64,000 nt of DNA, from positions 172,046-236,045 of the forward strand of contig OZ251457.1 in the NCBI GenBank assembly GCA_965242565.1, written 5' to 3'. A model generated the notes under the pieces. That model did no database searches. It saw only the letters and a list, made by a program, of their open reading frames with translations, and was not told where the DNA came from. Below are positions 24,433 to 55,878 of the stretch, piece by piece; position 1 is the first letter of the stretch; the number at the start of each line of letters is the position of its first letter. This DNA comes from Dehalococcoidia bacterium (GTDB lineage Bacteria > Chloroflexota > Dehalococcoidia > Bin125). The translations under genes and the position numbers were made by a program.

Positions 24433-24480
24433 CGGAGCGTCCTCACCTTCCGACGCCAGTGTAGCGCGGGCGGGCAGCGC

Positions 24481-24765: not shown

Positions 24766-24814
24766 CAGCGCTGCCCGCACTCTCTGGCGGCAGTGTAGAG
24801 CGGGCGGGCGGCGC

Positions 24815-28089: not shown

Positions 28090-28140
28090 GGTGCGACGCT
28101 AGCAGAGAGTGGGTTCGTTGGATGTCTTGAGATTGGCGGC

Positions 28141-28198
28141 AGGCCGACCCCCAGTCCGCTTGCGCGGACAGCCTCCTGCATAGGGGGGCGATTTCGGA
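28141..28198. repeat. Double-hairpin element (family D)
   Basis: CCCCAGTCCGCTTGCGCGGACAGCC...TGCATAGGGGGGCGATTTCGG. Confidence 0.65.
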
Positions 28199-28503: not shown

Positions 28504-28961
28504 TCGGAGGTCTCAGCGTCGCGCTCATCAAGCCAGAAGACAAGCTCTTGATGCCAGCCGCCGGGGTGCTTTATGCCCTGCCCAGCCTTCTGCGAAGGAG
28601 GGGTGACCGTTACCCGAAACCCGCTCCAGTCATCCTCCTCTCGCTCTGTGAATTCCCAAGTGACCTCGACAGGCGGCCACTCCTTCCATTCGTGCCGAAA
28701 CCCCAACTGATCCTTCAGCAACAGCCCAGTGTTCCACGGCGACACTCTTTCGGTCATCGCGTAGAGCTCGGCGCACACCTTGCGCATTTTTTCGCGCACA
28801 TCCGCGCCGCCCACGGCTACGCCCCAGCTCTTGTGGCGCGCGTTCAGCGTCAGGTGGTGGGACACCTGTCCTGTAGCATTCCGAAGCTCCTGCAAGTCGC
28901 TCCAGAGCTCGAGGATCCGGTTGGCGAGGATGTGCCGCCCGTAGTCGTTCTGGTCTTCCAT
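28500..28961 (-). CDS. Hypothetical protein (153 aa), lower-GC islet
   Basis: Non-shadow amino-acid composition (Trp/Glu/Lys-rich). ATGA overlap with the downstream ARH remnant. No motif recognised. Confidence 0.55.
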   Translation of the reverse strand: MEDQNDYGRHILANRILELWSDLQELRNATGQVSHHLTLNARHKSWGVAVGGADVREKMRKVCAELYAMTERVSPWNTGLLLKDQLGFRHEWKEWPPVEVTWEFTEREEDDWSGFRVTVTPPSQKAGQGIKHPGGWHQELVFWLDERDAETSE

Positions 28962-29038: not shown

Positions 29039-29338
29039 TCAGTCCTTCCCTGCGCGCCAGCGCTCCACTGCGGCGGCGTTGGCAGCGATCACCGCGTCTA
29101 GGCAGTCGCGGAGGGTGAACGTCTGGTCGTAAAGCACCGACGGATCCATATCCACAGCCTGCGAGTAGACGCCGACGGCGCGCATCAGCAGCAGCTCCGG
29201 GTCGGCGGTCGGCCGCCCCAAGGCATCGTCTCCTCTGACTTCATCAAGGGCTTCCGAATCGGTGACGCCGGACCGTCCGTCCTTGTAGCCGGGGCGCACC
29301 CTCTCATACAGCTCAGTGAGGTTGTCCCAGTCCGTCAT
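29039..29338 (-). CDS. Hypothetical protein (99 aa), lower-GC islet
   Basis: Plausible composition. ATGA overlap with the upstream 53-codon remnant ORF. No motif recognised. Confidence 0.5.
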   Translation of the reverse strand: MTDWDNLTELYERVRPGYKDGRSGVTDSEALDEVRGDDALGRPTADPELLLMRAVGVYSQAVDMDPSVLYDQTFTLRDCLDAVIAANAAAVERWRAGKD

Positions 29339-29493
29339 CGTTCGGTCCTTTCCTGGGGGGCGGCCCTCAGCACGGGCCGCGCATCGGCATCCTTGACTGC
29401 CTCGCGCCGTTCGGGGCGGGCGTCGAGCCCCTGCTCGCGGAGCAGATCCGCCAGCTTGCCGTTCAGCAACTCTTCCTGGTCGTGCGCGGCCAT
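29335..29493 (-). pseudogene. Remnant of the methyltransferase-fusion N-terminus with internal deletion
   Basis: MAAHDQEELLNGKLADLLREQGLDARPERREAVKDADAR matches residues 1-32 and ~62-70 of the 911/925-aa proteins, then diverges to a stop. Confidence 0.6.
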
Positions 29494-29497
29494 TGGC

Positions 29498-30760
29498 TTA
29501 CGCCTCTTTTGTGGCTCCGGCGGCGATGAGTGCGTCGATCTGGGGCGGCTCGAAGCCGAGTTCGCGGAGGATTGCGCGGGTTTGGCTGGCGAACGGGGCG
29601 GCGGCTTTCTGCGGGCGGAAGCCGTCGCCATCGAGGGCGAGGGGCGGGGAGAGCAGGCGGATGGGGCCGATTTGCGGGTGCTCCAGGTCGTGCAGCATTG
29701 CATTGGCTTCGGTTTGGGGATCGTCGAGCAGTTCCATCGGGGTGAGCACGCGGGAGGCGGGCACGCCGGCCTCGGCGAGCGTGCGCTCCCAGTCGGCGGT
29801 GGGACGCTCGCGCAGGCGCGCTTCGGCGGCGATACGCAGGTCGTCGTAGTACTGCTCGCGGCCCGCGCCTTCGTCGCCGGCGTGCGGGTCTTCGAGTCCG
29901 ATGGCCTCGATAAAGCGCTGGCGCAGGCGGCGGCTGCCGCAGGCGACGGCGAGCCAGCCGTCGGCGGTGTCGTAGGTGCGGAAGTAGATGTCGGCCATCG
30001 AGCGGGCGCGTGCGTAGGGCAGGGCGGCGCGCTGGGTTGGGTAGTCGGCGCCGGCGGCGCGCAGCCGCGCGAGTTCGGCTGCGGCTTCGGCGTGAATGGG
30101 GCCGTCGACCGATTCGACGCGCATCATCTGGTTGTTGTTGAGCGTCATGGCGGCCTGCATGAGCGAGGCGTGGACGGCTGCGCCGTCGCCGGTGTTGGCG
30201 CGGCGGAGCAGCGCGGAGGCGACGCCGAAGGCGAGCGTCATGGCGCACATGTAGTCGGCGGCGACGGGGTCGCCGGATGCGGGGCGTCCGTCGGTGGCGC
30301 GCCCGTTGGCGACCATCAGGCCGCTGCGGGCCTGGACGACGATGTCCATGCCGGCGAGCGCGGCGTCGGGCCCGCGCCGCCCGAAGGGGGTGACGGCGGC
30401 GGTGATCAGGGTGGGGTAGCGGGCGCGCAGGGTGTCGGCGTCGAGCCCGAGCTGCTCAGCGAGCCCGGGGCGGAAGTTCATCAGGGCGACATCGGCGCTG
30501 CGCAGGAGGGCGTCGATCACCTGCGGCGCGTCGGGGTGGCGCAGGTGCAGAGGCAGGGAGCGTTTGCCGCGGTTGCGGGAGATGAAGATGCGGGTTTCCA
30601 TGTCGGCCAGCTGGCCCAGCCGGCGGGTGGGGTCGCCCTCCAGCGACTCGATCTTGATCACGTCCGCCCCGCCTTCGGCGAGCAGTTGGCCGCAGAAGGG
30701 GACGGCGACGAATTGTCCGAATTCGATGACGCGGATGCCGTGGAAGGGTTGGGTGGTCAT
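29498..30760 (-). CDS. Family III CoA-transferase (CaiB/BaiF type)
   Basis: GIRVIEFGQFVAVPFCGQLLAEGGADVIKIE N-terminus. Trimmed to ATG 30760. Confidence 0.85.
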   Translation of the reverse strand: MTTQPFHGIRVIEFGQFVAVPFCGQLLAEGGADVIKIESLEGDPTRRLGQLADMETRIFISRNRGKRSLPLHLRHPDAPQVIDALLRSADVALMNFRPGLAEQLGLDADTLRARYPTLITAAVTPFGRRGPDAALAGMDIVVQARSGLMVANGRATDGRPASGDPVAADYMCAMTLAFGVASALLRRANTGDGAAVHASLMQAAMTLNNNQMMRVESVDGPIHAEAAAELARLRAAGADYPTQRAALPYARARSMADIYFRTYDTADGWLAVACGSRRLRQRFIEAIGLEDPHAGDEGAGREQYYDDLRIAAEARLRERPTADWERTLAEAGVPASRVLTPMELLDDPQTEANAMLHDLEHPQIGPIRLLSPPLALDGDGFRPQKAAAPFASQTRAILRELGFEPPQIDALIAAGATKEA

Positions 30761-30789
30761 GGAATGCGACGGTAGCAGAGGGGGCGGGC

Positions 30790-31050
30790 CGCAGCCCCTC
30801 CGCCTCTCCGTCATCCAGTCCGCTCTTCCGTCATTCCCGCCCCCGAGCGGGAACCAAACGGCGGTCCTCAGCGGCACACTGTCCCGAGATGTCCTGCGAA
30901 CGCGGTTGGCGGGCAATCCGCAGCCCTGGCGCTGCGAACGAGGTTGGGTTTGGATTCCCGCTCGGGCGCGGGAATGACGGAGAAAGGGGCGCGGGAATGA
31001 CGGAGGTGGGGGCACGGGAATGACGAAAGGAAGGGGCGCGGGAATGACAG
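30790..31050. repeat. Nested palindromic element (families H and P) with GGGAATGACGG tail
   Basis: CCGTCATTCCCGCCCCCGAGCGGGAA (30828-30853) and GGATTCCCGCTCGGGCGCGGGAATGACGG (30952-30980) flank a P-like core. Four GCGGGAATGAC units follow. Confidence 0.65.
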
Positions 31051-31275
31051 AAGGGGAGCATGTTGCGAAGTTGGCCGCCGGAGGAGAGGCCGCCGGCAAT
31101 GGCGAGGAAGATCACAGCGCCCGATACCGCCTCAGGATCGCGCCGCCGGTGAGGCTCTGCAACCCGCGTTACGGCGTAACACGATCGTCATATCGGCGAC
31201 ACCTGCCTGCAACCGGCGGCGCGCCGACCCTCCATACGTTTGCACTGTCGAACGAACGCAGATGGAGGGCGAACG

Positions 31276-34312: not shown

Positions 34313-34320
34313 GGACTGGG

Positions 34321-34470
34321 GCGGCCGACCCCCCAGTCCGCTCGCGCGGACAGCCCCCCTGCGTAGGGGGGCGATTCCAGAAGCGGCGCCCCCTGCGTAG
34401 GGGGGCGATTTCGGAAGGCGGACATGCCCCCCTCTGTATCTCCCCCCAGGATGGGGGGAGAGGGTGGAAG
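34321..34470. repeat. Family D element with extra G6/C6 hairpins
   Basis: CCCCCCAGTCCGCTCGCGCGGACAGCC, two copies of CCCCCTGCGTAGGGGGG, and CTCCCCCCAGGATGGGGGGAG. Confidence 0.7.
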
Positions 34471-38373: not shown

Positions 38374-38590
38374 ATTCCCGCTCGGGGGCGGGAATGACAG
38401 AAAGGGTGGCGGGAATGACGGAAAGGGTGGCGGGAATGACGGAAAGGGTGGCGGGAATGACGGAGAGGGGGGTGACGGGTCTTGGGGAAGGGAGTTGGGT
38501 GCTGTTCACGTCGAGATACCCGCGGCAAGCGCGGGTATGACGGAGAGGGGCAGGAGTGACGGAGAGGAGGGGAGAATGACGGGGGAGGGA
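38374..38590. repeat. Family H hairpin plus 21-nt tandem repeat
   Basis: ATTCCCGC-TCGGGG-GCGGGAAT (38374-38395), then four GCGGGAATGAC(A/G)GA(A/G)AGGG-type 21-nt units, then a partial ATACCCGCGGCAAGCGCGGGTATGACGG hairpin. Confidence 0.75.
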
Positions 38591-39597: not shown

Positions 39598-39745
39598 GGG
39601 AGGCCGACCCCCCAGTCCGCTGCGCGGACAGCCCCCTGCATAGGGGGGCGATTCCGGAGGGGCGGCGGAGCCCCCCTCTGTGTCTCCCCCCAGGATGGGG
39701 GGAGAGGGAAAATGGTTCTCCGCAGGATGGGGGAGAGGGGAATTG
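39598..39745. repeat. Family D element with extra hairpins
   Basis: CCCCCCAGTCCGCTGCGCGGACAGCC, CCCCTGCATAGGGGGG and CTCCCCCCAGGATGGGGGGAG. Confidence 0.7.
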
Positions 39746-39763
39746 ACCCCTCCAAAGTGAGGG

Positions 39764-41092
39764 TTATTGGGGGCGGTGGCGGAGCATTTGGCGCTTGATG
39801 CCGCCGACGTGGAGGAAGCCGATGACGTATTCGGGGTCGGCGGCGAGCTCGAGGTTGGGGAGGATCGGCAGCAGGGCGTGGAAGATGGAGCGCATCTCCC
39901 AGCGGGCGAGGTTTGCGCCGAGGCAGAAGTGCTCGCCGTAGCCGCCGAAGGCGAAGTGGTCGTTGGGCTCGCGGCGGATGTCGAAGCGGTAGGGGTCTTC
40001 GAAGACATCCTCGTCGCGGTTGGCGGAGGGGTACCAGAGCACGACCGACTCGCCCTTGCGGATGGTTTGTCCGCGCAGCTCGACGTCTTCAACGGCGGTG
40101 CGCTGGAACTGGATCACGATCGAGGTCCAGCGCAGGATTTCCTCGACGGCGGAGGGCACGAGTTCGGGGTGGGCGACGAGGTCGTTGAGCTGGTCGGGGT
40201 GGTCGATCAAGGCTTTGACGCCGCCGGAGATCGAGTTGCGGGTGGTCTCGTTGCCGGCGGCGAGGAGCAGCACGAAGTAGCCGTGGATTTCGGCCGGCGA
40301 GAGCTTGCGGCCATCCACCTCGGCGCGCAGGAGGTCGGAGAGCAGGTCGTCGCCGAGGCCTTCGCGCCGGCGCTGCTGGATTAGCTCGTTGTTGTAGTGG
40401 AACCACTCGGTGCTGATGCGGCGGCTGGCCTGGCTGGGGGTCTCGCCGGGCAGGCGGAATTCGGGGTCGTCGGCGCCGACGAGCACCTCGGTCCACTCGA
40501 AGATCTTGTCCCAGTCTTCCTCGGGGACGCCGCCCATGTCGCAGATCGCGGCGACGGGCAGTTTGGCGGAGAGTTCGTGGACGAGGTCGACGGCGGAGCG
40601 CTCGCCGCGCGCGGCGAAGTCGGCGATGATCTTGTCGGCGAAGTTCGAGACGTAGTTTTCGGCCATTTCGGCGAAGTGGTCTTCGAGCATCTTCATCATG
40701 CGGGGGGTGAAGTGGCGGGCGACGAGGCCGCGGTGCATGCGGTGCTCGGGCGGGTCCATGTAGATGAAGTCGGGCGGGTCGGCGGGGTTGCCGCCGGTGA
40801 AGTTGGACTGTTCGGTGCGCTGCTTCTGGGCGTTGCCGAGCTTGCGGGCGGTGTTGAGGCGCAGCATCTGGGCGTTGGAGAAGAGTTCGGGGTGGCTGCT
40901 GATGTAGCGGATGTCGGCGTGCCTAGTGATCGCCCAGAAAGGCTCAAAGCCGGGCCGCTGGTACCAGTAGACGGGCGCCTCGCGGCGCAGCACATCCCAC
41001 TCCGCCCACGGGTAGCCGTAGTCGCGGTAGCGATCGGCGTCGGTGATGTCGACGGCGTCGACGGTCAGTCGGGGGGCTTCTGCGGTGACCAT
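39764..41092 (-). CDS. Cytochrome P450 (CYP125/142-like), paralogue a
   Basis: Heme loop FGGYGEHFCLGANLAR, AGNETT I-helix and EEILRW. Trimmed to ATG 41092. Confidence 0.88.
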   Translation of the reverse strand: MVTAEAPRLTVDAVDITDADRYRDYGYPWAEWDVLRREAPVYWYQRPGFEPFWAITRHADIRYISSHPELFSNAQMLRLNTARKLGNAQKQRTEQSNFTGGNPADPPDFIYMDPPEHRMHRGLVARHFTPRMMKMLEDHFAEMAENYVSNFADKIIADFAARGERSAVDLVHELSAKLPVAAICDMGGVPEEDWDKIFEWTEVLVGADDPEFRLPGETPSQASRRISTEWFHYNNELIQQRRREGLGDDLLSDLLRAEVDGRKLSPAEIHGYFVLLLAAGNETTRNSISGGVKALIDHPDQLNDLVAHPELVPSAVEEILRWTSIVIQFQRTAVEDVELRGQTIRKGESVVLWYPSANRDEDVFEDPYRFDIRREPNDHFAFGGYGEHFCLGANLARWEMRSIFHALLPILPNLELAADPEYVIGFLHVGGIKRQMLRHRPQ

Positions 41093-45373: not shown

Positions 45374-46702
45374 ATGGTCATGGCTGAAGCGCAACCGCTG
45401 ACTCTGGACACGCTCGACATCACGGATACGGAGCTCTACGTCCAACACGGCTACCCGTGGGAAGCCTGGGATCTGCTGCGCCGCGAAGCGCCCGTCTACT
45501 GGTACCAGCGGCCCCGCTTCGAGCCCTTCTGGGCGATCACCAGGCACGCCGACATCCGCTTCATCTCCTCACACCCCGAGCTCTTCTCCAACACCCAGAT
45601 TCTGCGCATGAACGACACCGAGTCGATCGGCATCCTCGAGCGCACCCGCGAGGTGAAGGCCAACCGCTACGGCGGCCACCCCTCCGAACCGCCCGACTTC
45701 ATCTTCATGGACCCGCCCGAGCATCGGCAGCACCGCGGACTCGTCGCGCGGCACTTCACCCCCCGCATGATGAAGCGGCTCGAGGACCACTTCGGCGAGA
45801 TGGCCGAGAACTACGTCAGCAGCTTCGCCGAAAAGCTCGTCGCCGACTTCGCCGCGCGCGCCGATCGCTCCGCCGTCGATGTGGTGCATGAGCTCTCCGC
45901 CAAGCTGCCCGTCGCCGCGATCTGCGACATGGGCGGCGTCCCCGAGGAAGACTGGGACCAAATCTTCCACTGGACCGAAGCCTCCGCCGGCGCGGCCGAC
46001 CCCGAATTCCGACTGCCCGGCGAGAGCCGCGAGCAGACCATCCGCCGGATCGACCTCGAATACAGCCTCTACAACGAGGACCTGGTGCGCGAGCGGCAGC
46101 GCAACGGGCTCGGCGACGACCTGCTCTCCGATCTGCTCAAGGCGGAGGTCGACGGCGAACCGCTCACCCCGCGCGAAATCTCGGGCTACTTCCGCCTGCT
46201 GATCGGCGCCGGCAACGAGACCACCCGCAACTCAATCACCGGCGGAATCAAGGCCCTGCTCGATCACCCTGACCAGCTGGAGGACCTGGTCGCCCACCCC
46301 GAGCTGGTGCCCTCCGCCGTCGAAGAGATTCTGCGCTGGACTTCGATCGTGATCCAATTCCAGCGCACCGCCACCCAGGACATCGAGCTGCGCGGCCAGA
46401 CGATCCGCAAGGGCGACTCGATCGTCATGTGGTACCCCTCGGCCAACCGCGACGAAGAGGTCTTCGAAGACCCCTACCGCTTCGACATTCGCCGCGAGCC
46501 CAACGACCACTTCGCCTTCGGCGGCTACGGCGAGCACTTCTGCCTCGGCGCGAACCTCGCCCGCTGGGAGATGCGCGCCATCTTCCACGCCCTGCTGCCC
46601 ATCCTCCCCCAACTCGAACTCGCCGGCGAACCCCAAATGGTCCCCCGCAGCCTCCACGTAGGCGGCATCAAGCGCCAACTGGTCCGCCACCGCCCCCAAT
46701 AA
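45374..46702 (+). CDS. Cytochrome P450 (CYP125/142-like), paralogue b
   Basis: Same motifs as paralogue a, with very similar sequence along the whole length. Confidence 0.88.
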   Translation: MVMAEAQPLTLDTLDITDTELYVQHGYPWEAWDLLRREAPVYWYQRPRFEPFWAITRHADIRFISSHPELFSNTQILRMNDTESIGILERTREVKANRYGGHPSEPPDFIFMDPPEHRQHRGLVARHFTPRMMKRLEDHFGEMAENYVSSFAEKLVADFAARADRSAVDVVHELSAKLPVAAICDMGGVPEEDWDQIFHWTEASAGAADPEFRLPGESREQTIRRIDLEYSLYNEDLVRERQRNGLGDDLLSDLLKAEVDGEPLTPREISGYFRLLIGAGNETTRNSITGGIKALLDHPDQLEDLVAHPELVPSAVEEILRWTSIVIQFQRTATQDIELRGQTIRKGDSIVMWYPSANRDEEVFEDPYRFDIRREPNDHFAFGGYGEHFCLGANLARWEMRAIFHALLPILPQLELAGEPQMVPRSLHVGGIKRQLVRHRPQ

Positions 46703-46747
46703 CTCCCTCTCCCTCATCCTGAAGGAGACACAGAAGGGGCTTCGCCC

Positions 46748-46833: not shown

Positions 46834-47025
46834 CTACTCCTCCACTGAAATCGCCGCGCGCGGACATGTCCGCACCGCCCGCATCACCCGTTCCCGCTCC
46901 GCTTCCGGAATCTCATCCACCAACAGGTGCGACAGGTCGTCGTCGCGCACCTCAAAGACCGCCGGCGCGGCCTCCATGCACTTCGCGTGACCCTCGCAGA
47001 GCGTCGTGTCGATCTTCGCCTTCAT
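46834..47025 (-). CDS. Small single-cluster ferredoxin (P450-type redox partner)
   Basis: 63 aa with CEGHAKC...CP cysteine spacing. Confidence 0.75.
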   Translation of the reverse strand: MKAKIDTTLCEGHAKCMEAAPAVFEVRDDDLSHLLVDEIPEAERERVMRAVRTCPRAAISVEE

Positions 47026-47055: not shown

Positions 47056-48078
47056 CTACTCCGCGCGGAGCCGCGGAATCACCTCCCGCGCAAAACGCTC
47101 CATCGACTCCCGCGCCAACTCGCGCGGCGCGCCCGGCGGCGCGCCCATCGAAATCACGTGCTGCGCCGGAATCCACTCCAGCGTCCGCGCAATCGACTCC
47201 GCCACCTGCTCGGCCGAACCCGCCACGAATCGCTCCCGCAGATCCTCATCCGTCTGCCCGATCATCCGCCCCAGCGGATCGTCCGGCCCCAAATCCGCCG
47301 CCTCGCTGTACCACTTGCCGTAGGTGTCGCGCAGATATTGCTGGTGCGGACGCAGCTGTTCCCACAGTCCCTCCGGATCGTCGGTCACGAAGCCGCCCGC
47401 CGAGAGCAGCACCTCAAAATCGGCGGGATCGTCTCCCTGCGCCGCCAGCTGCTCCGCCCACGCCTCATAGACTGGACGGTCCGCCACGATCATCAGGTTC
47501 GCGCGGAAGCGCGCCGCCCGCCGCGCCGCCGGCACGCTCCGCGCCCCCACCCAGAGCGGAAACGGACGCTGCACCGGCGGCGGCGTCACCGTCACGTTCT
47601 TCACCTGGTAGTGCTCGCCGTCGAGCGAGACTGTCTCCCCATTCAGCGTCCGCGTCAGAATTTCCAGCGACTCATCCATGATCGCCCCGCGCTTGCGCCG
47701 GTCCACCCCGAACCCCTCGAACTCCTCGATCCGGTAGCCCAGCCCCACCCCCAGATCGAGGCGCCCATTGCTGAGAATGTCCACCGTCGCCGCGTCCTCC
47801 GCCACCCGCACCGCGTTGTGCAGCGGCAGCAGCAGCACCCACGTCCCGATCCGCACCCGCGAGGTCAGCCGCGCCACGGCAGCCGCAATCGGCAGCACCG
47901 ACGGCGTGTAGCCGTCCTCGATGAAGTGATGCTCCGTGATCCACACGTGGTCGTAGCCCAGCCGCTCCGCCAGCTGCACCTCGTCGAGCATCTCGTCGTA
48001 GAACTGCGCCCACGGACGCCGCCACCGCGGCGGATTGCGAAAGTCGTAGATCAGGCCGAACCGGGGAGATTGGGGCAT
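47056..48078 (-). CDS. LLM-class (luciferase-like) flavin/F420-dependent oxidoreductase
   Basis: GYDHVWITEHHF and GVGLGY motifs. Trimmed to ATG 48078. Confidence 0.8.
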   Translation of the reverse strand: MPQSPRFGLIYDFRNPPRWRRPWAQFYDEMLDEVQLAERLGYDHVWITEHHFIEDGYTPSVLPIAAAVARLTSRVRIGTWVLLLPLHNAVRVAEDAATVDILSNGRLDLGVGLGYRIEEFEGFGVDRRKRGAIMDESLEILTRTLNGETVSLDGEHYQVKNVTVTPPPVQRPFPLWVGARSVPAARRAARFRANLMIVADRPVYEAWAEQLAAQGDDPADFEVLLSAGGFVTDDPEGLWEQLRPHQQYLRDTYGKWYSEAADLGPDDPLGRMIGQTDEDLRERFVAGSAEQVAESIARTLEWIPAQHVISMGAPPGAPRELARESMERFAREVIPRLRAE

Positions 48079-48185
48079 GTCGCGTCCCTGTCGCATACTT
48101 GTCGCTCCGCAAGCCCGATGGTAACGCCGGATGCGCTGCGCCTTGCTACGCTTAGTGTCAGTCAGACACCAAGAGCGGAGAACCG

Positions 48186-49295
48186 ATGGAACTACGCGAG
48201 CGCGCACGCGGCATGATGGTCGGCCTCGCCGTCGGCAACCTGCTCGGCATCCCCTTCGAGGGCAGTCGCTGGGATGCGGACCGCATTCGCGACGAGTTCG
48301 GCGATCAGGGCATCCGCGAGATCGAAGCCCAGCCCGGCTATCCGGACGACGACGACCTCGCCCAGGCGATCGTGCTGGCCGAGGCCTGCGCAGAGAACGA
48401 GTCGCTGGACCTCGATGACTTCGTCCACCGCCTCTGGACCTGGGGCGAGCTCAACGGCGCCGGGATGGGCCCGCACACGAAGCGGGCGCTCACCCGCTAC
48501 GGCGGCGATCGACCGCGCCGCGCCCTACGCAACTACGTGCGGCACGGCGAGCCGCCTCCGCCGAATCTGCCGCGGAAGCCGCACGGAATGCATGCGCGGG
48601 ATGCCTCACGCGACGCCTGGCGGGAGAGCCGCGCACGCCACGGCGACTACAACGCGGGCAACGGCGCAGTGATGCGCTGCGCGCCCGTCGCGCTGCGCTG
48701 GGTACTCGACGATGCGGCGATCGTGCGCAACAGCATCGTCAGCGCCGCAGCGACGCACTGGGATCCGCGCTGTACCTGGTCGGCGGCGCTGGTCAATCTC
48801 GCCGCGGCGTCCTGCCTGCGCGGCGAGACGGTCGACGCCGAACACCTGATCCTGCGCGCCCAGGGCGCGATCCAGCAGTGCGCCGACGAATTTGAGCCGT
48901 ACGATGTCGACGCCGAGCCGCCCGCGGAGGTCGCCCAGGCCGTCCGCGATGCGCTCGCCGACGGCGTCGCGATCGGCGATCTGGACATTGACCATCCCGC
49001 GAGTGGATACGTGATCAAGATCCTCAAAGCGGCGCTTTGGGCCGCGCGGCATCCCGCACACTTCGAGGACGGCCTGAGCGCCGTTGTCAGCGCGGGCGGC
49101 GACACCGATACGAACGGCGCGGCGGCGGGCGCCGTGCTCGGTGCGCGCTTCGGGCTGGACGAGATTCCTGAGCGCTGGCGCGCTGCGGTCAACGAGATCC
49201 GGGACTACACCGCGCCGATCGCCGCCTGGCAGCCGCGCCAGCCGCTGGAGCGCTATGCGGATCGACTGCTCGCATCATCGCGGGCGATGGACTGA
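48186..49295 (+). CDS. ADP-ribosylglycohydrolase family protein (369 aa)
   Basis: GLAVGNLLGIPFEG, YPDDDDLAQAI and AGGDTDTNGAAAGAVLGARFG motifs. Confidence 0.85.
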   Translation: MELRERARGMMVGLAVGNLLGIPFEGSRWDADRIRDEFGDQGIREIEAQPGYPDDDDLAQAIVLAEACAENESLDLDDFVHRLWTWGELNGAGMGPHTKRALTRYGGDRPRRALRNYVRHGEPPPPNLPRKPHGMHARDASRDAWRESRARHGDYNAGNGAVMRCAPVALRWVLDDAAIVRNSIVSAAATHWDPRCTWSAALVNLAAASCLRGETVDAEHLILRAQGAIQQCADEFEPYDVDAEPPAEVAQAVRDALADGVAIGDLDIDHPASGYVIKILKAALWAARHPAHFEDGLSAVVSAGGDTDTNGAAAGAVLGARFGLDEIPERWRAAVNEIRDYTAPIAAWQPRQPLERYADRLLASSRAMD

Positions 49296-49337
49296 CCCAC
49301 CCGCGGTCCGACGGACCCGGACGCAAAGGAGGCTGAA

Positions 49338-50327
49338 ATGGACCTGATCGAGCGCGCACGCGGCATGATGGTCGGCATCGCCGTCGGCAACCTGCTCGGC
49401 CTGCCCTTCGAGTTCGGCTGGTCCGTCGCCCAACTGCGCGAGACCTATCCCGACGGGGTCCGCGAAATCGAGGTTCGACCCGGCGCGCCCGACGACGACG
49501 ATCTGGCGCAGGCGATCATCCTCGCCGAGGCTTGCGCGGAGTTCGACGCGCTCGACGCGGAGGATCTCAAGCGCCGCCTCCAACATTGGGCGCGGACCAA
49601 CGGCGCGGGAATGGGGAACCTGACCGGTGAGGTGATCTGGCGGTACGAACACGCGGGAGCGTTCGAGGCGGCGCGCGGCGCATGGGAAGACTCCGGACGC
49701 GAAGCCGCCGGCAACGGCTCAGTCATGCGCTGCGGTCCTGTCGCGCTGCGCTGGCTGGGCGACGACCACACCCTCGCCCGCAACAGCGTCGTTTCGGCGG
49801 CCGTCACTCACTGGGACCCGCGCTGCGTTTGGTCCACCCTGCTGACCGACTTCGCAATCGCCGCCTGCCTGCGCGGCGAAACGGTGGAAGCGGAGCCGCT
49901 GCTGGCGCGGGCGACGGCCGCGCTGGCCGCCTGCGGCGATGCGCTCGCGGCATTCGAGCTGCCCGCGCAGCCGCCCGCGCCGGTGCTCGACGCAGTGGCC
50001 ACGGCGCTAGCGCCCGACGCTCAAGTCGCCGACCTGCAGCTCGATTCCGGCGGCGTCGGCTACGCGCCCAAAACCCTCGCCGCGACCCTCTGGGCCGCGC
50101 ATCACGCAGCGGACGTAGAAGAAGGCCTCAGCGCCATCGTCAGCGCCGGCGGCGACACCGATACCAACGCCGCCCCCGCCGGCGCCGCCCTCGGCGCGCG
50201 CTTCGGCCTCGCCGCCATCCCAAACCGCTGGCGCAACGCAGTAGCCCAAATTCGCCAGGACCGCACTCCTCTTGAGCGCTACGCCGACCAAGTCCTCGCA
50301 CGGAGGGGCGCCGCCTCTCTCTGCTAG
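49338..50327 (+). CDS. ADP-ribosylglycohydrolase family protein (329 aa)
   Basis: GIAVGNLLGLPFEF, APDDDDLAQAI and AGGDTDTNAAPAGAALGARFG motifs. Confidence 0.85.
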   Translation: MDLIERARGMMVGIAVGNLLGLPFEFGWSVAQLRETYPDGVREIEVRPGAPDDDDLAQAIILAEACAEFDALDAEDLKRRLQHWARTNGAGMGNLTGEVIWRYEHAGAFEAARGAWEDSGREAAGNGSVMRCGPVALRWLGDDHTLARNSVVSAAVTHWDPRCVWSTLLTDFAIAACLRGETVEAEPLLARATAALAACGDALAAFELPAQPPAPVLDAVATALAPDAQVADLQLDSGGVGYAPKTLAATLWAAHHAADVEEGLSAIVSAGGDTDTNAAPAGAALGARFGLAAIPNRWRNAVAQIRQDRTPLERYADQVLARRGAASLC

Positions 50328-50337
50328 CGTCGCACCA

Positions 50338-53115
50338 ATGCCCACCACCCACGACCAAGAGGAGTTGCTGAACGGCAAGCTCGCTGAACTGCTCCGCGAG
50401 CAGGGGCTCGACGCCCGCGCCGAACGCCGCGAAGGCGGCAAACGCATGGATGTCGTGGTCGATGTGGAGGGAGCCCGCGTCGTGCTCGAAGCCGAAACCG
50501 GCGTCAGCACTGCCAAGCGCAACGAAGCCGTCGGCGACGCAGACCGACGCCTCAGGCAGGGCCTGACCACCGTCGTCTTCGCCGTCTGCTACCCCGACGG
50601 CGCAACGACGGACTCGCTGGCGGAAGCGAAGCTGATCTGGGCCGTCCGCACCCGCATCGATCTCAGCAGCCGCGCCGCGGCCCGCTGGTCCGAACCCGGC
50701 GGCGTGCCCGAACTCGCCGAAGCCGTTCGCCAGGCCGGCGCCGCCGTAGGCGACGCCGACGGCGCGGCCCAAATCCTCTCCGAGGCGCTGGACGCCGCCG
50801 TCCAACGCCTCTCGACGCCGGTGCGGCGGACGATCGCACAAGCGCTCGATCTACCACAGGAGAAAACCAGAGACCGCCGCCTGCTCGAGCTGCATCAGCG
50901 CGAAACCGACGGTTACTTCATCGCGACAAAACGTGGCATGCTGGTCGTCGCTACGGCCATGCTCTTTCACCACCGATTGCAGGAGCACCTCCCGCTCGAA
51001 CCACCGCCCGACTACCGCGGCGGATGGCCGCCCGCGAACCCAACCCAGTGCGCAGCCGCGCCGGAAACGACTATCGGCGCGTTCCTCGAGTCCTGGCGCG
51101 CCATCATCAAGGTCGACTACCGCCCGGTATTCGATGTCGCCTGCGTCGTCCTCGAAACACTGTCGATCTCGCCTGATGTCGCGCAGGCGCTATTCGCGCT
51201 CGCGGGCGATGTCGCCAAAATCGCCGGCCTCATCCACGGACTGCGCCACGACCTGCTCGGGCGCATCTTCCACCGTGTGCTCGATACCGCGCGTTACGAC
51301 GGCTCCTTCTACACTTCAACGGCCGCAGCCGTGTTGTTGGCTGCGCTGGCACTGCGCGAGGAAGATCGCAACTGGTCCGATCCCGACGCTGTCGGGCGGC
51401 TGCGCATCTGCGACCCCGCCTGCGGCACCGGCACCCTGCTGATGGCCGCCGCCGAGCGCATCCGCGACCTCCGCCAGCGCGCCGGCCCCATCGCCCAGGA
51501 GGAGGAACGGCTGCTCTCTCTGGCGCTGGTTGAAAACGTGCTCTGGGGTTACGACATCAACCTCACCGCCACGCATATGGCCGCCGCAACGCTGGGCATG
51601 CTCTCGCCCAGTACGCAATTCAATAACATCAACGTTCACCGCACCCTGCTCGGCGTCCACGACGGCGTCGCATACGTCGGATCACCCGAACTGCTCCAGG
51701 GTCAGCTGCGGCTCCGCCCCTGGCCGTCGATCAGTCGACAAATCGACGAGCAGCCTGATGACAACGGCGTGAACGGCGCGAAAGCGCCGCCTCCGATGGA
51801 CTTCGTGGTCATGAACCCGCCGTTCACCCGCGACAGTCTGCGCCACGACCAGTTCTCCAAGAACGAAGAAGCAGCGATCAAGCGCCAGGAAAAGGACCTG
51901 CTCAAAGATCAGCCGCACCGCGGCGCCGCGCGACTGCACTCCTCCGGTGGAATGTTCACCGTCCTCAGCGAAAAGATGCTGAAACCAGATGACGGCGTGA
52001 TCGCGTTGGTGCTGCCGGCCGTCGTCCCGACCGCGCCCGGCAATCGGGCGCTGCGTGAATACCTCGCCGCTCGGCTGCACATTGAGACGATCGTCAGCTC
52101 GCATGATCCCGACCGCATTCTGATGTCGGAGAACACGAAGATCAGCGAAGTGCTCCTGATCGGCAGGCGCTGGCCCGCCGACGAGCCGAAGCCGCCGACC
52201 CGCTTCGTCAACCTGATCGAAAACCCGTCCACTTCGGTCGCCGCAGTCAGCACCGCCGCGCAGATCGAGCGCGGCCGCGGCCGCTTCGTCGTCCAGCAGG
52301 TTGACGTCGATCGCATCGCCGACGGCGATTGGTACGCAGTCAACTTCCTCTCGCCGTTCCTGTTCAGGGAGGCGCAGTCGCTCTGGGACGACGCTGCGCA
52401 GACCGAATCACGGTTCGCGTCAATGTCGACGATCGCCGATGTTGCGCCGGAAGGCCGGCGCATCCGCGACGCATACACGCGCTCAGACGTGCCGACCGTA
52501 ACGGACCGCCGCGCTCTGTGGTTTCACAAGTCCGACGTGACGCAATCGATGCAGGCTCACACCGATACGTTCATCGACGCGAAAGAGGAGAAGCAGCACC
52601 TCGCGGATCGCTACTGGGACATGCGCAGCAAGTTCCTGCTGGGCGCGCGCCTACGTCTCAATACCGCGCGCGTCGCAGCCGCCATCGTCGAACAACCGGC
52701 TGTCGGATCGCTCTGGGTTCCCTGCCGCCCGCACGACGGCTTCGGCGAAACGTCTCGCGCCCTCTGCGCCTATCTTAATTCCACGGTCGGCCTGCTGTCG
52801 CTGCTCAGCCGGCGCGCCCACAACGTACTCTCCCGCCCCGCGTTCTCGCTCGACACCCTGCGCTCGATCCCCGTGCCCAACTTCCCCGCGCTCGGCGACG
52901 ACGTCCGCGACGCACTCGCCGACGCCTACGAAACGCTCAAAAACGAAACACTGCTCCCCTTCCCCCAAATGAACGACGACCCGATCCGCAAACAACTCGA
53001 CGACGCCGTAACCAACGCCCTCAACCTCGACCCCGAGTGGGTCGCCCAAATCCGCCGCGCCCTCTCCGAAGAACCCTCCATCACCAACAAGCGCTACGCC
53101 GGCCCAACTCCCTGA
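50338..53115 (+). CDS. 925-aa fusion: N-terminal PD-(D/E)xK-like domain + gamma-class N6-adenine DNA methyltransferase + specificity-like region (paralogue of 25354..28089)
   Basis: FYTSTAAA, ICDPACGTGTLLMAAAE and DFVVMNPPF motifs. Trimmed to ATG 50338, 10 nt after the ARH stop. Confidence 0.8.
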   Translation: MPTTHDQEELLNGKLAELLREQGLDARAERREGGKRMDVVVDVEGARVVLEAETGVSTAKRNEAVGDADRRLRQGLTTVVFAVCYPDGATTDSLAEAKLIWAVRTRIDLSSRAAARWSEPGGVPELAEAVRQAGAAVGDADGAAQILSEALDAAVQRLSTPVRRTIAQALDLPQEKTRDRRLLELHQRETDGYFIATKRGMLVVATAMLFHHRLQEHLPLEPPPDYRGGWPPANPTQCAAAPETTIGAFLESWRAIIKVDYRPVFDVACVVLETLSISPDVAQALFALAGDVAKIAGLIHGLRHDLLGRIFHRVLDTARYDGSFYTSTAAAVLLAALALREEDRNWSDPDAVGRLRICDPACGTGTLLMAAAERIRDLRQRAGPIAQEEERLLSLALVENVLWGYDINLTATHMAAATLGMLSPSTQFNNINVHRTLLGVHDGVAYVGSPELLQGQLRLRPWPSISRQIDEQPDDNGVNGAKAPPPMDFVVMNPPFTRDSLRHDQFSKNEEAAIKRQEKDLLKDQPHRGAARLHSSGGMFTVLSEKMLKPDDGVIALVLPAVVPTAPGNRALREYLAARLHIETIVSSHDPDRILMSENTKISEVLLIGRRWPADEPKPPTRFVNLIENPSTSVAAVSTAAQIERGRGRFVVQQVDVDRIADGDWYAVNFLSPFLFREAQSLWDDAAQTESRFASMSTIADVAPEGRRIRDAYTRSDVPTVTDRRALWFHKSDVTQSMQAHTDTFIDAKEEKQHLADRYWDMRSKFLLGARLRLNTARVAAAIVEQPAVGSLWVPCRPHDGFGETSRALCAYLNSTVGLLSLLSRRAHNVLSRPAFSLDTLRSIPVPNFPALGDDVRDALADAYETLKNETLLPFPQMNDDPIRKQLDDAVTNALNLDPEWVAQIRRALSEEPSITNKRYAGPTP

Positions 53116-53165
53116 CGCGCTCCCGCTCCACGCGCTACACTGGCGTCGGAAGGCGAGGCGCCCCA

Positions 53166-53590
53166 ATGGCCATCAGCAGACAACGGCTCACCGCGCCGCT
53201 CGTGCGCGGCAACTGCCGGAAGAGCATGCGACGGAGTTCAGCAACGGGCTCGTCGAAGAGGTCGAGCGGGAACTCGAGCCGCTGGCGACCAAGGTGGAAG
53301 TGAATGAGGCGATCGCCCAGGCGACCGAGCCGCTGGCGCGGGCCATCACCGAGATGGCGCAGGCGATCAACGATCTCCGCAACGAGTTCCGCCTGGAGAT
53401 GCGCGACCTCCGCAGCGACATGAACGAGGAGCTCAGCAAGCTCCGCAGCGACACGAATGAGGAGATCGGCAAGCTCCGTGTCGAAGCCGCAGAGCGGGAG
53501 GCGCGCATGGCGCGGATGGTGCTCACGATGACGGGCATCAACATCGCCGCAATTGCCACCGCCGTCGGCATCGTCCTCGGCTTCAACTGA
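53166..53590 (+). pseudogene. DUF1640-like coiled-coil TM-anchored gene (paralogue 5) with a 1-nt frameshift
   Basis: MAISRQRLTAPLVRGN, then a frame change at 53213/53214 (GGC AAC TGC CGG versus GGC AAC GTG CC in paralogues 2 and 4). The rest reads in ORF 53294..53590. Confidence 0.7.
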
Positions 53591-53668
53591 GCGCCGCCCG
53601 CCCTACACCGACATCGAAAGGCGAGAGCGGCGCTGATGTTCACCAGCAGACAACGTCTCACCGTCCGC

Positions 53669-54592
53669 CTAACGCCACAATTCCACCCGACCGCCCAGCG
53701 GCACATCCAGCAACTCCGTGCGCGGGGCGACGTGGTTTAACTCGTTGACCACCGGCGCCAGCGCGTCCGCCGAGGTCATATCCCGTGTCATCGGCGGCAT
53801 CCAGTCGTCGTGATGCCCCAGCACCACCCGCCGCGCCCGCAGCATGTCGCTCATCCGCCCCACGAATTGCGCCAGCGAACCCTGAATCGGCTCGCCGTCG
53901 ATATTCGGACGCCCCGCCATCGCCACGATGCCCAGATCGGGCCGCAAATTCTGCACCACGCCCGTCCAGCAACCCGACGTGTCGTGGTAGAAAATCGAGC
54001 CGTACGGCGTATCGATCAGGTACGCCAGCGCCCCGCCCGTGTCGTTGCTGCCCAGACACGACGCCACGTGATCCAGCATCTGCGCGCGCTGCGCCGGATC
54101 CTGCTCCACCCCGCGCTCGCCCAGCGAACCGCCCACATCCAGCGCCCCGCGACCGCCCCAACGCTCCTCCTCCGTCAGTCCGTACTGCCCCAACACCACC
54201 TTGCCCGGCTCCCACGAACCCTGCGTCCAGATGCAGGAGTGCAGGCTGGGAAACACCTCCACCGTGATCCCCTCCGCGATCCGGTGCCGCTCCCCGCCCT
54301 GCGAGCGCAGCAGCCGCGACTCCTCCACCCCCGCCTCCAACAGCACCCGCGCCGACTCATTCGAGCCAATCACCACCGCCTCAGTATTCGCCGCGATCAC
54401 CTCCGCTCCCGCGATGTGGTCGAAATGCGAGTGCCCCACCAGTACCGCGTCCGCCCGCGTCACATCCGCCGCCGAAAGCCCCACATCGGGCGCAGACGAC
54501 ACCCGGTCAATGTAGGCGTCGAGAAAGATCACCGTCTCGTCGATCGCCAGCCGAAACGTCGCGCAGCCGAGCCAGTCGAGTGTGATGGGCAT
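53669..54592 (-). CDS. MBL-fold metallo-hydrolase
   Basis: VGHSHFDH motif. Trimmed to ATG 54592. Confidence 0.8.
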   Translation of the reverse strand: MPITLDWLGCATFRLAIDETVIFLDAYIDRVSSAPDVGLSAADVTRADAVLVGHSHFDHIAGAEVIAANTEAVVIGSNESARVLLEAGVEESRLLRSQGGERHRIAEGITVEVFPSLHSCIWTQGSWEPGKVVLGQYGLTEEERWGGRGALDVGGSLGERGVEQDPAQRAQMLDHVASCLGSNDTGGALAYLIDTPYGSIFYHDTSGCWTGVVQNLRPDLGIVAMAGRPNIDGEPIQGSLAQFVGRMSDMLRARRVVLGHHDDWMPPMTRDMTSADALAPVVNELNHVAPRTELLDVPLGGRVELWR

Positions 54593-54609
54593 GAGTCGTC
54601 TCCAGCGGG

Positions 54610-55878
54610 TTACGAGCGTCGGATCCGCAGCCAGGTGCGCTTGCCGACTTTGAGCACATCGCCGTCGCGCAGCTCGACGGGCTGCTCGGCGGCGCGCGCG
54701 CCGTTGAGTTCGACGGCGCCCTGGCGGATCAGGCGTTTGGCTTCGGCGCGGCTGGCGGCCGCGCCGGCGTCGGCCAGCACGACGGCGAGCGGCGCGGTCA
54801 GCGTCTCCGCGCCGCCGAAGTCGAGCTCCAGCGGCGGCATCTCCGCCGGCGCTTCGCCGCGCGAGTGGACGCGCGTCCACTCGCGCTCGGCGGCGGCGGT
54901 CTCGGATTCGCCGTGCCACTCGGCGACGATCGCCCGGGCCAAGCGGCGTTTGGCGTCCATCGCCGGCAGCGCGCCGCCCTGTACATCGGCGATCACCTGA
55001 TCCGCCTCAGCCGGCTCGACGTTCGTGCCGTGGACCAGAAACTCTGCGACGGCCGCGTCGGGGATCGACATCGCCTTGGCGTACTGCGCGTCGGGCGGCT
55101 CGTCGATCCCGATGTAGTTGCCGGTGCTTTTGGACATGCGCTGTTTGCCGTCGGTGCCGATCAGGATCGGGGTGAGCACGGCGATTTGGGGGGGGTGTCC
55201 GGCGCGTTCCTGGAGGGTGCGTCCGCAGCCGATGTTGAAGGTTTGGTCGGTGCCGCCGAGTTGGACGTCGGCGTCGAGGGCGACGGCGTCGTAGCCCTGC
55301 ATGAGGCCGTACATGAATTCGTGGACGTAGACGGGGTCGCCGGCGTCGAGGCGTCGTGCGAAGGTGTCGCGCTCGGCGAATTGGCTGACGGTGAAGTTGG
55401 CGGCGAGGCGGATGACGTCGGCGAAGTTCATGCCGGCGAGCCATTCGCTGTTGCGTCGGATTTCGGTGCGCTCGGGGTCGAGCAGTTTGTAGGCCTGTTC
55501 GCGGTAGGTGCGGGCGTTGCGTTCGAGCGTTTCGGGCGATTGCATGGGTCGGGCGCTGGATTTGTCGGAGGGGTCGCCGACGAGGCCGGTGAAGTCGCCG
55601 ATCAGGAGGATGGCCTGGTGCCCGAGTTGTTGGAAGAGTTGGAGTTTGCGGAGGGTGACGCAGTGTCCGATGTGGAGGTCGGGGGAGGTGGGGTCGACGC
55701 CGAGGTAGACGCGGAGGGGGTCGCCAATGCTGATCGAGTTGATCAGGCGCTGGCGGAGTTCGTCGGCCATGACGCGGCGGGTTTGCTCGTCGCCGTAGGC
55801 GGTGCCGCGCATGATCAGGCGATGTTGTCGGTCGGCTTCGGCGGCGACGGCGGGGTCGATGGGTTGACGCTCGGTCAT
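54610..55878 (-). CDS. tyrS: Tyrosine--tRNA ligase
   Basis: HIGH and KMSKS motifs, and a C-terminal S4-like domain. Confidence 0.92.
   Translation of the reverse strand: MTERQPIDPAVAAEADRQHRLIMRGTAYGDEQTRRVMADELRQRLINSISIGDPLRVYLGVDPTSPDLHIGHCVTLRKLQLFQQLGHQAILLIGDFTGLVGDPSDKSSARPMQSPETLERNARTYREQAYKLLDPERTEIRRNSEWLAGMNFADVIRLAANFTVSQFAERDTFARRLDAGDPVYVHEFMYGLMQGYDAVALDADVQLGGTDQTFNIGCGRTLQERAGHPPQIAVLTPILIGTDGKQRMSKSTGNYIGIDEPPDAQYAKAMSIPDAAVAEFLVHGTNVEPAEADQVIADVQGGALPAMDAKRRLARAIVAEWHGESETAAAEREWTRVHSRGEAPAEMPPLELDFGGAETLTAPLAVVLADAGAAASRAEAKRLIRQGAVELNGARAAEQPVELRDGDVLKVGKRTWLRIRRS

Follow-up and report, generated by a model that had tools for sequence, protein, structure and literature searches.

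Putative single-chain restriction-modification enzymes that probably came to lie beside unrelated resident ADP-ribosylglycohydrolases by insertion and duplication

The locus considered here lies in a 64-kb stretch of Dehalococcoidia DNA (the whole of the stretch analysed, hereafter the window) and comprises four genes in tandem on the forward strand: two coding for ADP-ribosylglycohydrolase family proteins, ARH1 (48186–49295; 369 aa) and ARH2 (49338–50327; 329 aa), followed by that for a fusion protein, MT-A (50338–53115; 925 aa from its ATG), and a frameshifted coiled-coil (CC) gene (53166–53590). On the left they are preceded by genes recognized with Pfam as coding for a P450 (45251–46702, forward strand), a ferredoxin (46834–47025, reverse) and a luciferase-like monooxygenase (47056–48207, reverse), which belong to the chromosomal backbone. 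On the right, DNA comparison recovered a further 5′ remnant of a CC gene starting at 53636, and a reverse-strand gene for a metallo-beta-lactamase-fold (MBL) protein (53669–54919; Pfam) marks the edge of the segment holding MT-A and CC. The list of open reading frames places the start of MT-A 10 nt past the stop of ARH2, just as had been claimed; the homologues do not use the TTG at 50272 that could serve as another start. As ARH2 and MT-A share a strand with just 10 nt between them, their co-transcription is likely, and a promoter and terminator scan of 47.9–53.8 kb returned no excess over the shuffled expectation.

Both ARHs are intact, as the sequence-only reading had it, with the PDDDD and GGDTDTN motifs present in the two translations. 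These di-metal motifs are common to the ARH/DraG/Tri1 ADP-ribosylhydrolases (PF03747), and both proteins match that Pfam family over its full length (E 1.2e-52 for ARH1 and 7e-51 for ARH2; 179.8 and 174 bits against a gathering cut-off of 26.2). They are tandem paralogues with 52% identity, and the closest solved relatives of ARH2 are the T. thermophilus ARH (2cwc), DraG, the Tri1-like 6dre and ARH3. Both fall far under the NCBIfam equivalog cut-offs for DraG (92–97 versus 337 bits) and Tri1 (65–87 versus 490 bits) and have zero matches in PADLOC-DB v2. An ARH-fold protein, DarG3, does occur in a defence-related toxin-antitoxin system, DarHTG (PMC13069673); however, DarTG/DarHTG systems carry an adjacent DarT-like ADP-ribosyltransferase toxin, which the window ARHs lack. 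The genes adjoining the latter code for the monooxygenase and the methyltransferase, with no ADP-ribosyltransferase, toxin or helicase of the DarHTG kind (PMC13069673), and their conserved neighbours, unlike those of DarHTG, are the P450, ferredoxin and monooxygenase genes.

MT-A can be divided into four regions, all read on the forward strand: an N-terminal PD-(D/E)xK-like domain (~50338–50667), a helical connector (~50668–51237), a gamma-class N6-adenine methyltransferase (~51238–52197) and a target-recognition-domain (TRD)-like C-terminal region (~52198–53112), as judged from the Pfam N6_Mtase profile, structure models and conserved motifs. The methyltransferase is recognized by PF02384 (30 bits versus a cut-off of 20.4), and the gamma-class motifs picked out in the first reading (FYTSTAAA, ICDPACGTGTLLMAAAE and DFVVMNPPF) are all there; the SAM-binding motif I (D359-P-A-C-G-T-G) and the catalytic motif IV (N493-P-P-F), in the gamma order, show no variation in sets of 33 and of 80 homologues. 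In Foldseek searches the AlphaFold model of MT-A finds the Type IIG enzyme BpuSI as its best PDB match (E 1.7e-14, aligned along the whole length), followed by CamA, M.BseCI, BrxX/PglX and DrdV. Its residues 252–919 are 35% identical (E 2e-100, 711 residues) to the C-terminal part of proteins with the architecture Mrr_cat_2-ResIII/DEAD-Helicase_C-N6_Mtase, and its homologues in haloarchaeal viruses carry the annotation of a type IIG enzyme. Sequence profiles were otherwise uninformative: against PDB, the whole protein and a profile of the N-terminal domain gave nothing, or weak HsdM/M.BseCI matches and noise (L6, SdeA, and AF1548 at E 0.9); Pfam found no family in residues 1–300 and 601–925; and PADLOC-DB v2 and NCBIfam returned weak generic matches to MTase_II/I, Type IIG, PglX and MAD2 (PADLOC at most 34 bits). 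The BpuSI match, the fold of the N-terminal domain and the Type ISP-like homology together uphold the original description of a Type IIG/IIL-sized protein with a nuclease-like domain, a gamma N6-adenine methyltransferase and a C-terminal recognition region. MT-A is probably an uncharacterised member of the single-chain restriction-modification (RM) enzymes, a known kind.

The family to which it belongs is large, with 1,243 clusters at 50% identity (E <= 1e-30), and is abundant and often multi-copy in the Chloroflexota class Dehalococcoidia, in neighbourhoods that vary between genomes. Conservation is even over all domains (61–71%). The TRD-like region is conserved to the same degree as the rest, which is unusual if the copies differ in specificity.

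Three known systems offer points of comparison. Like the Type IIG enzymes RM.BpuSI (PDB 3s1s) and DrdV (7lo5), MT-A is a single chain of roughly 900 aa with the same domain order; however, it shares about 12% sequence identity and a TM-score of only 0.35 with BpuSI, whose motif is PD-x15-ExK (PMC3185434) as against a putative E...D...E-x-E in MT-A. The methyltransferase–TRD part of the ~1,470-aa proteins resembling Type ISP enzymes (LlaGI/LlaBIII-like) also resembles MT-A and is its closest sequence tie to an interpretable architecture. These proteins have an Mrr domain and an SF2 helicase/ATPase, whereas MT-A has neither, bearing in their place a 110-aa nuclease-like domain and a 190-aa helical region; as both the Mrr domain and the helicase/ATPase are lacking, translocation-dependent cleavage is not expected of MT-A. 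The Type IIL enzyme MmeI, of about 919 aa, is similar in size and domain order, and in its family, as in that of MT-A, close homologues stay alike over their whole length, with the recognition region no exception. The MmeI family's own domain models do not place MT-A among its members: the MmeI_Mtase profile reaches 20.3 bits on MT-A against a cut-off of 27, MmeI_N, MmeI_hel, MmeI_TRD and MmeI_C have no match, and MmeI is missing from the top 50 structural matches of the model in Foldseek.

The N-terminal 105 residues are modelled with good confidence (pLDDT 88.7) as an alpha-beta-beta-beta-alpha-beta(-beta) core, in which E8, D38 and E51 are invariant in the family and E53 nearly so, with a K in its place in one divergent member (E-A-K). 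Almost all of the weak top Foldseek matches of the isolated domain are PD-(D/E)xK folds (Hjc, R2 endonuclease, I-Ssp6803I, EndA and XisH), and none reaches E 1e-3, the best being Hjc 2eo0 at E 0.09. The domain had no match among PDB sequences, and Pfam found no family on 15 N-domains at E <= 10. Fold topology and conserved acidic residues fit the PD-(D/E)xK-like character attributed to this ~100-aa region, but an E replaces the canonical K and the isolated domain has no significant match. The fusion family may itself be an uncharacterised branch of the single-chain RM enzymes, which would have an Hjc-like E-D-ExE nuclease domain. MT-A would bind a specific DNA site through its C-terminal region and methylate an adenine there, protecting the host DNA, and unmodified incoming DNA would be cut by the N-terminal domain with E8, D38, E51 and E53 as putative catalytic residues, all without a partner protein. 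Its paralogue MT-B (below) has the same four-part build, and for both proteins DNA adenine methylation is a predicted activity and cleavage a putative one.

A different view of the same domain is that it is a degenerate or non-catalytic nuclease fold, with a part in DNA binding or regulation, and that MT-A is solely a methyltransferase, serving as an orphan, epigenetic or anti-restriction methylase rather than a restriction enzyme. This is the most serious of the alternatives, if still an unlikely one. The E-x-E in place of E-x-K speaks for it, as does the failure of the isolated domain to match any structure or sequence significantly. Single genomes also hold two or three paralogues, all intact and with the TRD-like region conserved, and some family members, of ~750 aa, are without the N-domain; moreover, homologues of 28% identity on plasmids adjoin genes for an ArdC-like peptidase and the PRTRC system, an anti-restriction-type context that fits a methylase-only role. 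Against this, the three acidic residues and the distances between them vary little or not at all over 80 sequences, conservation of the N-domain equals that of the methyltransferase core, one member has the canonical E-A-K, and sister architectures have a bona fide Mrr nuclease and helicase at the same position. D...E-x-E is also a known variant of an active nuclease site, as in BamHI.

The gene downstream of MT-A had been read as DUF1640-like, coding for a coiled coil with a C-terminal transmembrane helix. The coiled-coil, tail-anchored character is borne out; however, the gene is frameshifted and its family match is sub-threshold. The start typical of the CC family, MAISRQRLTAPLVRGN, lies at an ATG at 53166, and a single base is missing near 53213, after codon 16, by comparison with the paralogues and an intact 199-aa orthologue at locus L001. 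Owing to this frameshift, the residual 98-aa GTG open reading frame at 53294–53590 is the tail of a broken gene. CCDC90-like/DUF1640 proteins (PF07798) likewise have a coiled coil followed by a C-terminal transmembrane helix, and the profile similarity is weak (19.0 and 22.8 bits, below the gathering score of 33.5). Unlike PF07798 members, the window CC family is lineage-specific and multi-copy, with variable in-frame repeats of 33, 54 or 87 nt; only seven true homologues are left once coiled-coil word matches are removed, and PADLOC-DB v2 returns generic coiled-coil noise (e.g., ZorA and LmuB). Four more members of the family lie on the reverse strand between lysS and MT-B (~22884–23297, 23725–24432, 24481–24765 and 24815–25303), in an array interrupted by a forward-strand NYN/YacP-like gene (23358–23732); the CC-NYN-lysS order is also present in loci L007, L091 and L092.

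MT-B (25354–28089, reverse strand; 911 aa) is an intact paralogue of MT-A, with 70% amino acid identity over the full length, and is orthologous to the methyltransferases of L007, L091 and L092 by its synteny on the lysS side. Upstream of it lie a REP-like element (28138–28198) and the 3′ remnant of an ARH gene (28242–28401, reverse), 84% similar to 50173–50290. The recurrence of the gene order in inverted orientation at 24.8–28.5 kb, from which the sequence-only reading had concluded that the linkage was not a one-off, is thus real as to its parts (an ARH remnant, MT-B and CC genes) but provides no independent evidence of linkage: the inverted copy is far beyond chance, yet it is one duplicated segment, and since it arose by segmental duplication with rearrangement it counts as a single occurrence rather than two.

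Comparison with other genomes dissolves the apparent module, and for defence-system discovery the result is negative. Of 271 detected genomic relatives of MT-A, we inspected the best 80, and the counts that follow cover 83 homologous loci, 79 of which hold an intact methyltransferase. An ARH is found by tblastn at two of the 83 and a CC gene also at two, all of them syntenic close relatives, which contradicts the proposal that ARH, methyltransferase and CC form a linked unit. The survey of methyltransferase neighbourhoods that had been put forward in advance as a check on it revealed no conserved linkage to ARH or DUF1640 genes, the very result that had been named beforehand as grounds for refuting it, and clustering of open reading frames within 5 kb on either side of the 83 loci gave no family-wide neighbour, the commonest being VapC (12 loci). 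Neither L001 (methyltransferase identity 92%) nor L004 (86%) has an ARH, and no methyltransferase lies near the more distant ARH homologues at L085 and L090.

The P450-ferredoxin-monooxygenase block that precedes the ARH in the window does so too in L007, L008, L084, L086 and L088, and L086 presents what amounts to an empty site: the block and a lone ARH, 71% identical to ARH2, are followed directly by MBL and tyrS, without a methyltransferase. There the MBL gene begins 17 nt past the ARH, and the window sequence 50290–53672 has no counterpart. The number of ARH genes at the syntenic position is one in L008, L086 and L088, two in the window and three in L084, and ranges from 0 to 3 across related loci. 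At the edges of the MT-A and CC insert we found no target-site duplication or terminal repeat longer than 8 nt, and a search of the window for integration hot-spots, by Rfam and tRNA scanning, was likewise negative.

We therefore consider it probable that MT-A and MT-B are solitary RM-type enzymes beside unrelated resident ARHs, brought together by an insertion and then a duplication. The ARHs would belong to a chromosomal P450-ferredoxin-monooxygenase-ARH block in which they were tandemly amplified, stripping ADP-ribose from some substrate; MT-A and the CC gene would have been inserted between ARH and MBL/tyrS in this lineage; and later duplication and recombination between the methyltransferase paralogues would have carried the segment from the ARH tail through the methyltransferase to CC to the lysS locus, shuffling the flanks. 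A stand-alone enzyme that landed by resident ARHs in one narrow lineage implies a chance neighbourhood and no new defence system, and MT-A presumably functions independently of the ARHs. More generally, tight spacing and a gene order repeated within a genome can arise when genes are inserted beside the backbone and the segment is then duplicated.

One could instead envisage that, in a genus-level clade, the ARHs were captured as co-transcribed helpers of the Type IIG-like enzyme, giving a young, lineage-restricted RM-plus-ARH system in which they might remove ADP-ribose imposed by phages on the enzyme or DNA, or degrade an ADP-ribose-derived signal. The shared strand, the 10-nt gap without a terminator-like site between ARH2 and MT-A, the adjacency kept in L008, L088 and L089 with gaps of 38–72 nt, and the DarG3 precedent (PMC13069673) would all accommodate this. 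We nevertheless regard it as very improbable: the adjacency is limited to one syntenic locus family and is looser in L007, L084 and L091, with variable spacing and inserted genes; the empty site retains its ARH without a methyltransferase; L001 and L004, whose methyltransferases are the closest orthologues, have no ARH; and no PADLOC match or adjoining ADP-ribosyltransferase gene ties these ARHs to defence. Furthermore, either partner decays without the other: in L008 and L084 the methyltransferase is broken and the adjoining ARHs are intact, and in the window an intact MT-B adjoins a mere ARH remnant. Least credible is a two-gene mobile or defensive cassette with the CC membrane protein as partner or effector of the methyltransferase, for even though CC lies 3′ of the methyltransferase in both window copies and in L001, L007, L091 and L092, and similarity within the duplication is highest at that junction (89%), 81 of the 83 loci lack it, including L004, L005 and L006 with methyltransferases of 79–86% identity, the family is tiny and lineage-restricted (seven matches), the copy by MT-A is frameshifted, CC genes are tied mainly to the NYN-lysS neighbourhood and their PADLOC matches (ZorA, LmuB) are generic noise.

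On the reading of MT-A and MT-B as solitary enzymes, the locus keeps a modest value. It draws attention to a large RM-type family that has no curated name and an N-terminal domain absent from Pfam, joined to a methyltransferase–TRD part common to Type ISP-like enzymes and spread, in abundance and multiple copies, among poorly studied high-GC Dehalococcoidia. The two genes also exemplify paralogous RM genes as substrates for recombination, and inverted paralogues of the family would drive chromosomal rearrangement. The DNA similarity between MT-A and MT-B is a mosaic (76–89%), peaking where the methyltransferase 3′ end meets the CC 5′ end, and in the contig CATQGW010000003.1 the end blocks, one with the CoA-transferase and one with P450-monooxygenase-ARH, have changed places relative to the window. 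We considered a single clean inversion between the inverted methyltransferase paralogues as the cause of the swapped flanks and rejected it, for the block at 32.1–37.8 kb has the same orientation in both; that this orientation is kept while the end blocks swap means that the history was more complex than one inversion. Of a third methyltransferase gene the window keeps a 5′ fragment (29393–29489, reverse), which forms a fusion with the end of the CoA-transferase gene (29498–31099, reverse). This fragment is 92.7% identical to the 5′ end of the intact methyltransferase gene next to the CoA-transferase in L092, and its identity to the L004 counterpart is 80%. Given the intact gene in L092, a third methyltransferase copy took part in the rearrangement.

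Two tandem ADP-ribosylglycohydrolase genes of the window (G+C ~70%), ARH1 (48186-49295, 369 aa) and ARH2 (49338-50327, 329 aa), are followed by the ORF of a 925-aa methyltransferase fusion, MT-A, which starts with an ATG at 50338, 10 nt past the ARH2 stop, and ends at 53115. Next comes an ORF (53294-53590) of the CC family of coiled-coil, C-terminally membrane-anchored genes. The sequence-only reading had proposed that these genes form an undescribed RM-like or defence module. Its assignment of both ARHs to that family, with the metal-site motifs in place, holds: each aligns with PF03747 along its entire length (E 1e-52 and 7e-51) and contains PDDDD and GGDTDTN, and the pair share 52% identity. 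The DUF1640-like coiled-coil gene stands only as an ORF: this is the tail of a gene broken by a frameshift (family start codon at 53166; after codon 16 it lacks 1 base that its paralogues and an intact orthologue in locus L001 have), and its DUF1640/CCDC90 similarity is under the Pfam cut-off. Taken as a whole, the region probably holds two solitary Type IIG-like enzymes, MT-A and its inverted paralogue MT-B, together with ARHs that would be backbone hydrolases unrelated to them.

The MT-A fusion is probably an uncharacterised single-chain RM enzyme. It passes the Pfam model N6_Mtase and fails MmeI_Mtase, leaving the earlier placement beside MmeI unsupported as family membership, and PADLOC and NCBIfam give just weak similarities to generic methyltransferases, Type IIG enzymes, PglX and MAD2. 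The full-length AlphaFold model, whose quality is moderate (pLDDT 69.6), has the Type IIG enzyme RM.BpuSI as its best PDB match (E 1.7e-14, aligned across the entire model), followed by the enzymes CamA and M.BseCI, which combine a methyltransferase with a target-recognition region (TRD), and then by BrxX/PglX and the Type IIG enzyme DrdV; these matches point to a Type IIG-like build. The N-terminal domain is outside Pfam. A separate, confident model of residues 1-300 (pLDDT 88.7) displays an alpha-beta-beta-beta-alpha-beta-beta core in residues 4-105 and then a helical bundle. A structure search with the isolated domain returned no significant PDB neighbour, and its weak top matches are nearly all of the restriction-endonuclease fold (Hjc resolvases, the R2 endonuclease, I-Ssp6803I, a tRNA-splicing endonuclease and XisH). 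E8, D38 and E51 are invariant in the family and E53 nearly so, being K in one divergent member; their spacing resembles that of E12/D42/E55/K57 in Hjc, and BamHI is an active enzyme of the D...E-x-E kind. The domain thus looks like a putative nuclease fold. MT-A and MT-B would each recognise a DNA site and methylate adenine there, a methyltransferase activity well supported as a prediction from motifs, and may cut unmodified DNA with the N-terminal domain, for which we put the chances as about evenly balanced. That the family comprises methylases only, the N-terminal fold notwithstanding, is a minority reading to which we give perhaps a third of the weight of the Type IIG-like one.

MT-A is also related to a group of proteins of ~1,470-1,500 aa (P0350, P0359 and similar members of the representative library), whose C-terminal 700 residues match profile positions ~226-905 (E ~1e-140) and whose methyltransferase-TRD part is preceded by Mrr_cat_2, ResIII/DEAD and Helicase_C domains. 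MT-A shares 35% identity over 711 residues with one of them, and its methyltransferase-recognition part is therefore common to Type ISP-like restriction enzymes; whereas these carry a motor-nuclease part, MT-A has a small nuclease-like domain instead. Forms of ~750 aa without any N-terminal domain also exist in the library, which brings the architectures that include this methyltransferase-TRD part to at least three. We find this kinship both informative and interesting, and with the structure models and the BpuSI match it upholds the proposed order of nuclease-like, methyltransferase and C-terminal regions.

The family is large: a profile run against 1.84 billion representatives recovered 4,129 proteins at E <= 1e-3, of which 1,243 reach E <= 1e-30. 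The best 120 database matches are all full-length, ~900-925 aa and 56-92% identical, and none of them bears a name. GTDB species representatives yielded 271 relatives, the best 80 of which are all from Chloroflexota and nearly all labelled Dehalococcoidia, with two or three copies in several genomes. The gene is intact in 79 of 83 inspected loci, and its four regions are about equally conserved (61-71% mean pairwise identity). In locus L083 a second, partial copy (12681-14489, minus strand) lies tail-to-tail ~2 kb downstream of the first. Distant relatives include full-length proteins at 28% identity on mobilisable proteobacterial plasmids (annotated as "N-6 DNA methylase" or hypothetical), as in Aminobacter pUSP4 (L093, 6001-8844) and Sulfuricystis pSTJ1 (L094, 5980-8895), and haloarchaeal virus methyltransferase domains annotated as "type IIG restriction modification enzyme". 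The two plasmid genes adjoin an ArdC-like zincin peptidase, DUF3560 and a PRTRC system, surroundings typical for plasmid establishment and anti-restriction genes.

Searches with ARH1 and ARH2 (tblastn) across 83 homologous loci, each with 8-10 kb on either side, placed an ARH near the MT-A homologue in just two (L007 and L008); a CC gene is likewise present in two (L001 and L007). These three loci are the closest relatives. An ARH is absent from L001 and L004, with orthologues 92% and 86% identical to MT-A. When all ORFs within 5 kb on either side were clustered, no family-wide shared neighbour emerged; the commonest is a PIN/VapC toxin gene directly upstream (12/83). This gene, which an antitoxin gene often precedes, overlaps the methyltransferase start by 4 nt (L002 9591-10004 and 11 more, e.g., L042 7576-8001). 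The ARH-bearing loci are syntenic with the window and not independent of it: L008, L088 and L089 have the order ferredoxin-monooxygenase-ARH-methyltransferase; in L084 three ARHs stand in tandem, accompanied by an additional ORF, and the methyltransferase is divided between two frames; and the MT-B orthologue of L007 and L091 has an ARH ~1.5 kb upstream. The locus that we take as decisive against ARH coupling is L086, with the order P450-P450-ferredoxin-monooxygenase-ARH and, after 17 nt, an MBL-fold gene, tyrS and ribF. Its backbone is that of window 45-57 kb, with no counterpart of 50290-53672; this empty site therefore marks the ARH as part of the backbone and MT-A with its CC gene as an insertion. 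Two more findings count against coupling. No methyltransferase lies near ARH homologues at 58-60% identity, and the partners decay independently: an ARH is down to a remnant beside intact MT-B, while in L008 and L084 it is the methyltransferase that is broken and the ARHs are intact. Linkage to ARH or CC genes is thus not conserved across the 83 loci, and the ARH-RM module that had been proposed is no real unit. That the ARHs were functionally recruited in this clade alone, as the 10-nt ARH2/MT-A spacing might suggest, finds no comparative support and is very improbable.

MT-B (25354-28089, minus strand; 911 aa, 70% identical to MT-A) is accompanied by an ARH 3' remnant (28242-28401), and a CoA-transferase gene is fused at its end to a piece from the 5' part of a third methyltransferase gene (29393-29489). 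Four CC genes lie between MT-B and lysS; in all, the family has five copies and a 5' remnant (ATG 53636) at 22884-25303 and 53166-53680. This family is lineage-restricted and tail-anchored, and is normally tied to an NYN/YacP-like gene adjoining lysS; its members share a conserved MAISRQRLTAPLVRGNVPEEH start and vary in their in-frame tandem repeats of 33/54/87 nt. DNA identity between the two copies is 84% in the ARH tail, 76-83% in the methyltransferase and 89% at the methyltransferase-3'/CC junction; the two represent a single segment that was copied or converted between loci. The second, inverted copy noted earlier is real, but as one such segment it is not independent evidence of linkage.

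From one related genome to another the flanks of MT-A and MT-B are swapped, the CoA-transferase and P450-monooxygenase-ARH blocks trading ends (window 28.1-31.1 kb and 45.2-50.3 kb; L004, L007 and L092). In CATQGW010000003.1 the MT-A orthologue has the CoA-transferase as its immediate neighbour, and the MT-B orthologue has the P450-monooxygenase-ARH block. The lysS locus of L092 carries an intact methyltransferase directly after the CoA-transferase, with a 5' end 92.7% identical to the window fragment at 29.4 kb. The ARH tail and the methyltransferase 5' fragment are the footprints of this swap in the window. The region has been reshuffled through recombination among methyltransferase paralogues, and the paralogous genes of RM type seem to serve as substrates for it. 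A single clean inversion was rejected as the cause, since it does not agree with the unchanged orientation of the 32-38 kb block.

Two inverted cytochrome P450 paralogues (39756-40809 and 45657-46710; 84% identity over 1,054 nt) form a second inverted-repeat pair, which could mediate internal inversions. In the interval from the ARH remnant to the methyltransferase fragment, two small minus-strand ORFs (28500-28961, 153 aa; 29039-29338, 99 aa) have neither a Pfam match nor a counterpart among the fetched loci, and may therefore be a small insertion. REP-like elements of ~50-60 nt with internal palindromes occur at 28138-28198, 34320-34380 and 39598-39658, and also at 34417-34464 and 39661-39708; the first of these copies separates the ARH remnant from the start of MT-B. 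Dispersed intergenic tandem arrays (875-986, 30964-31048 and 38387-38469) comprise 3.7-4.8 copies of a 21-23-nt unit, GGGCGCGGGAATGACGGRGAAAR.
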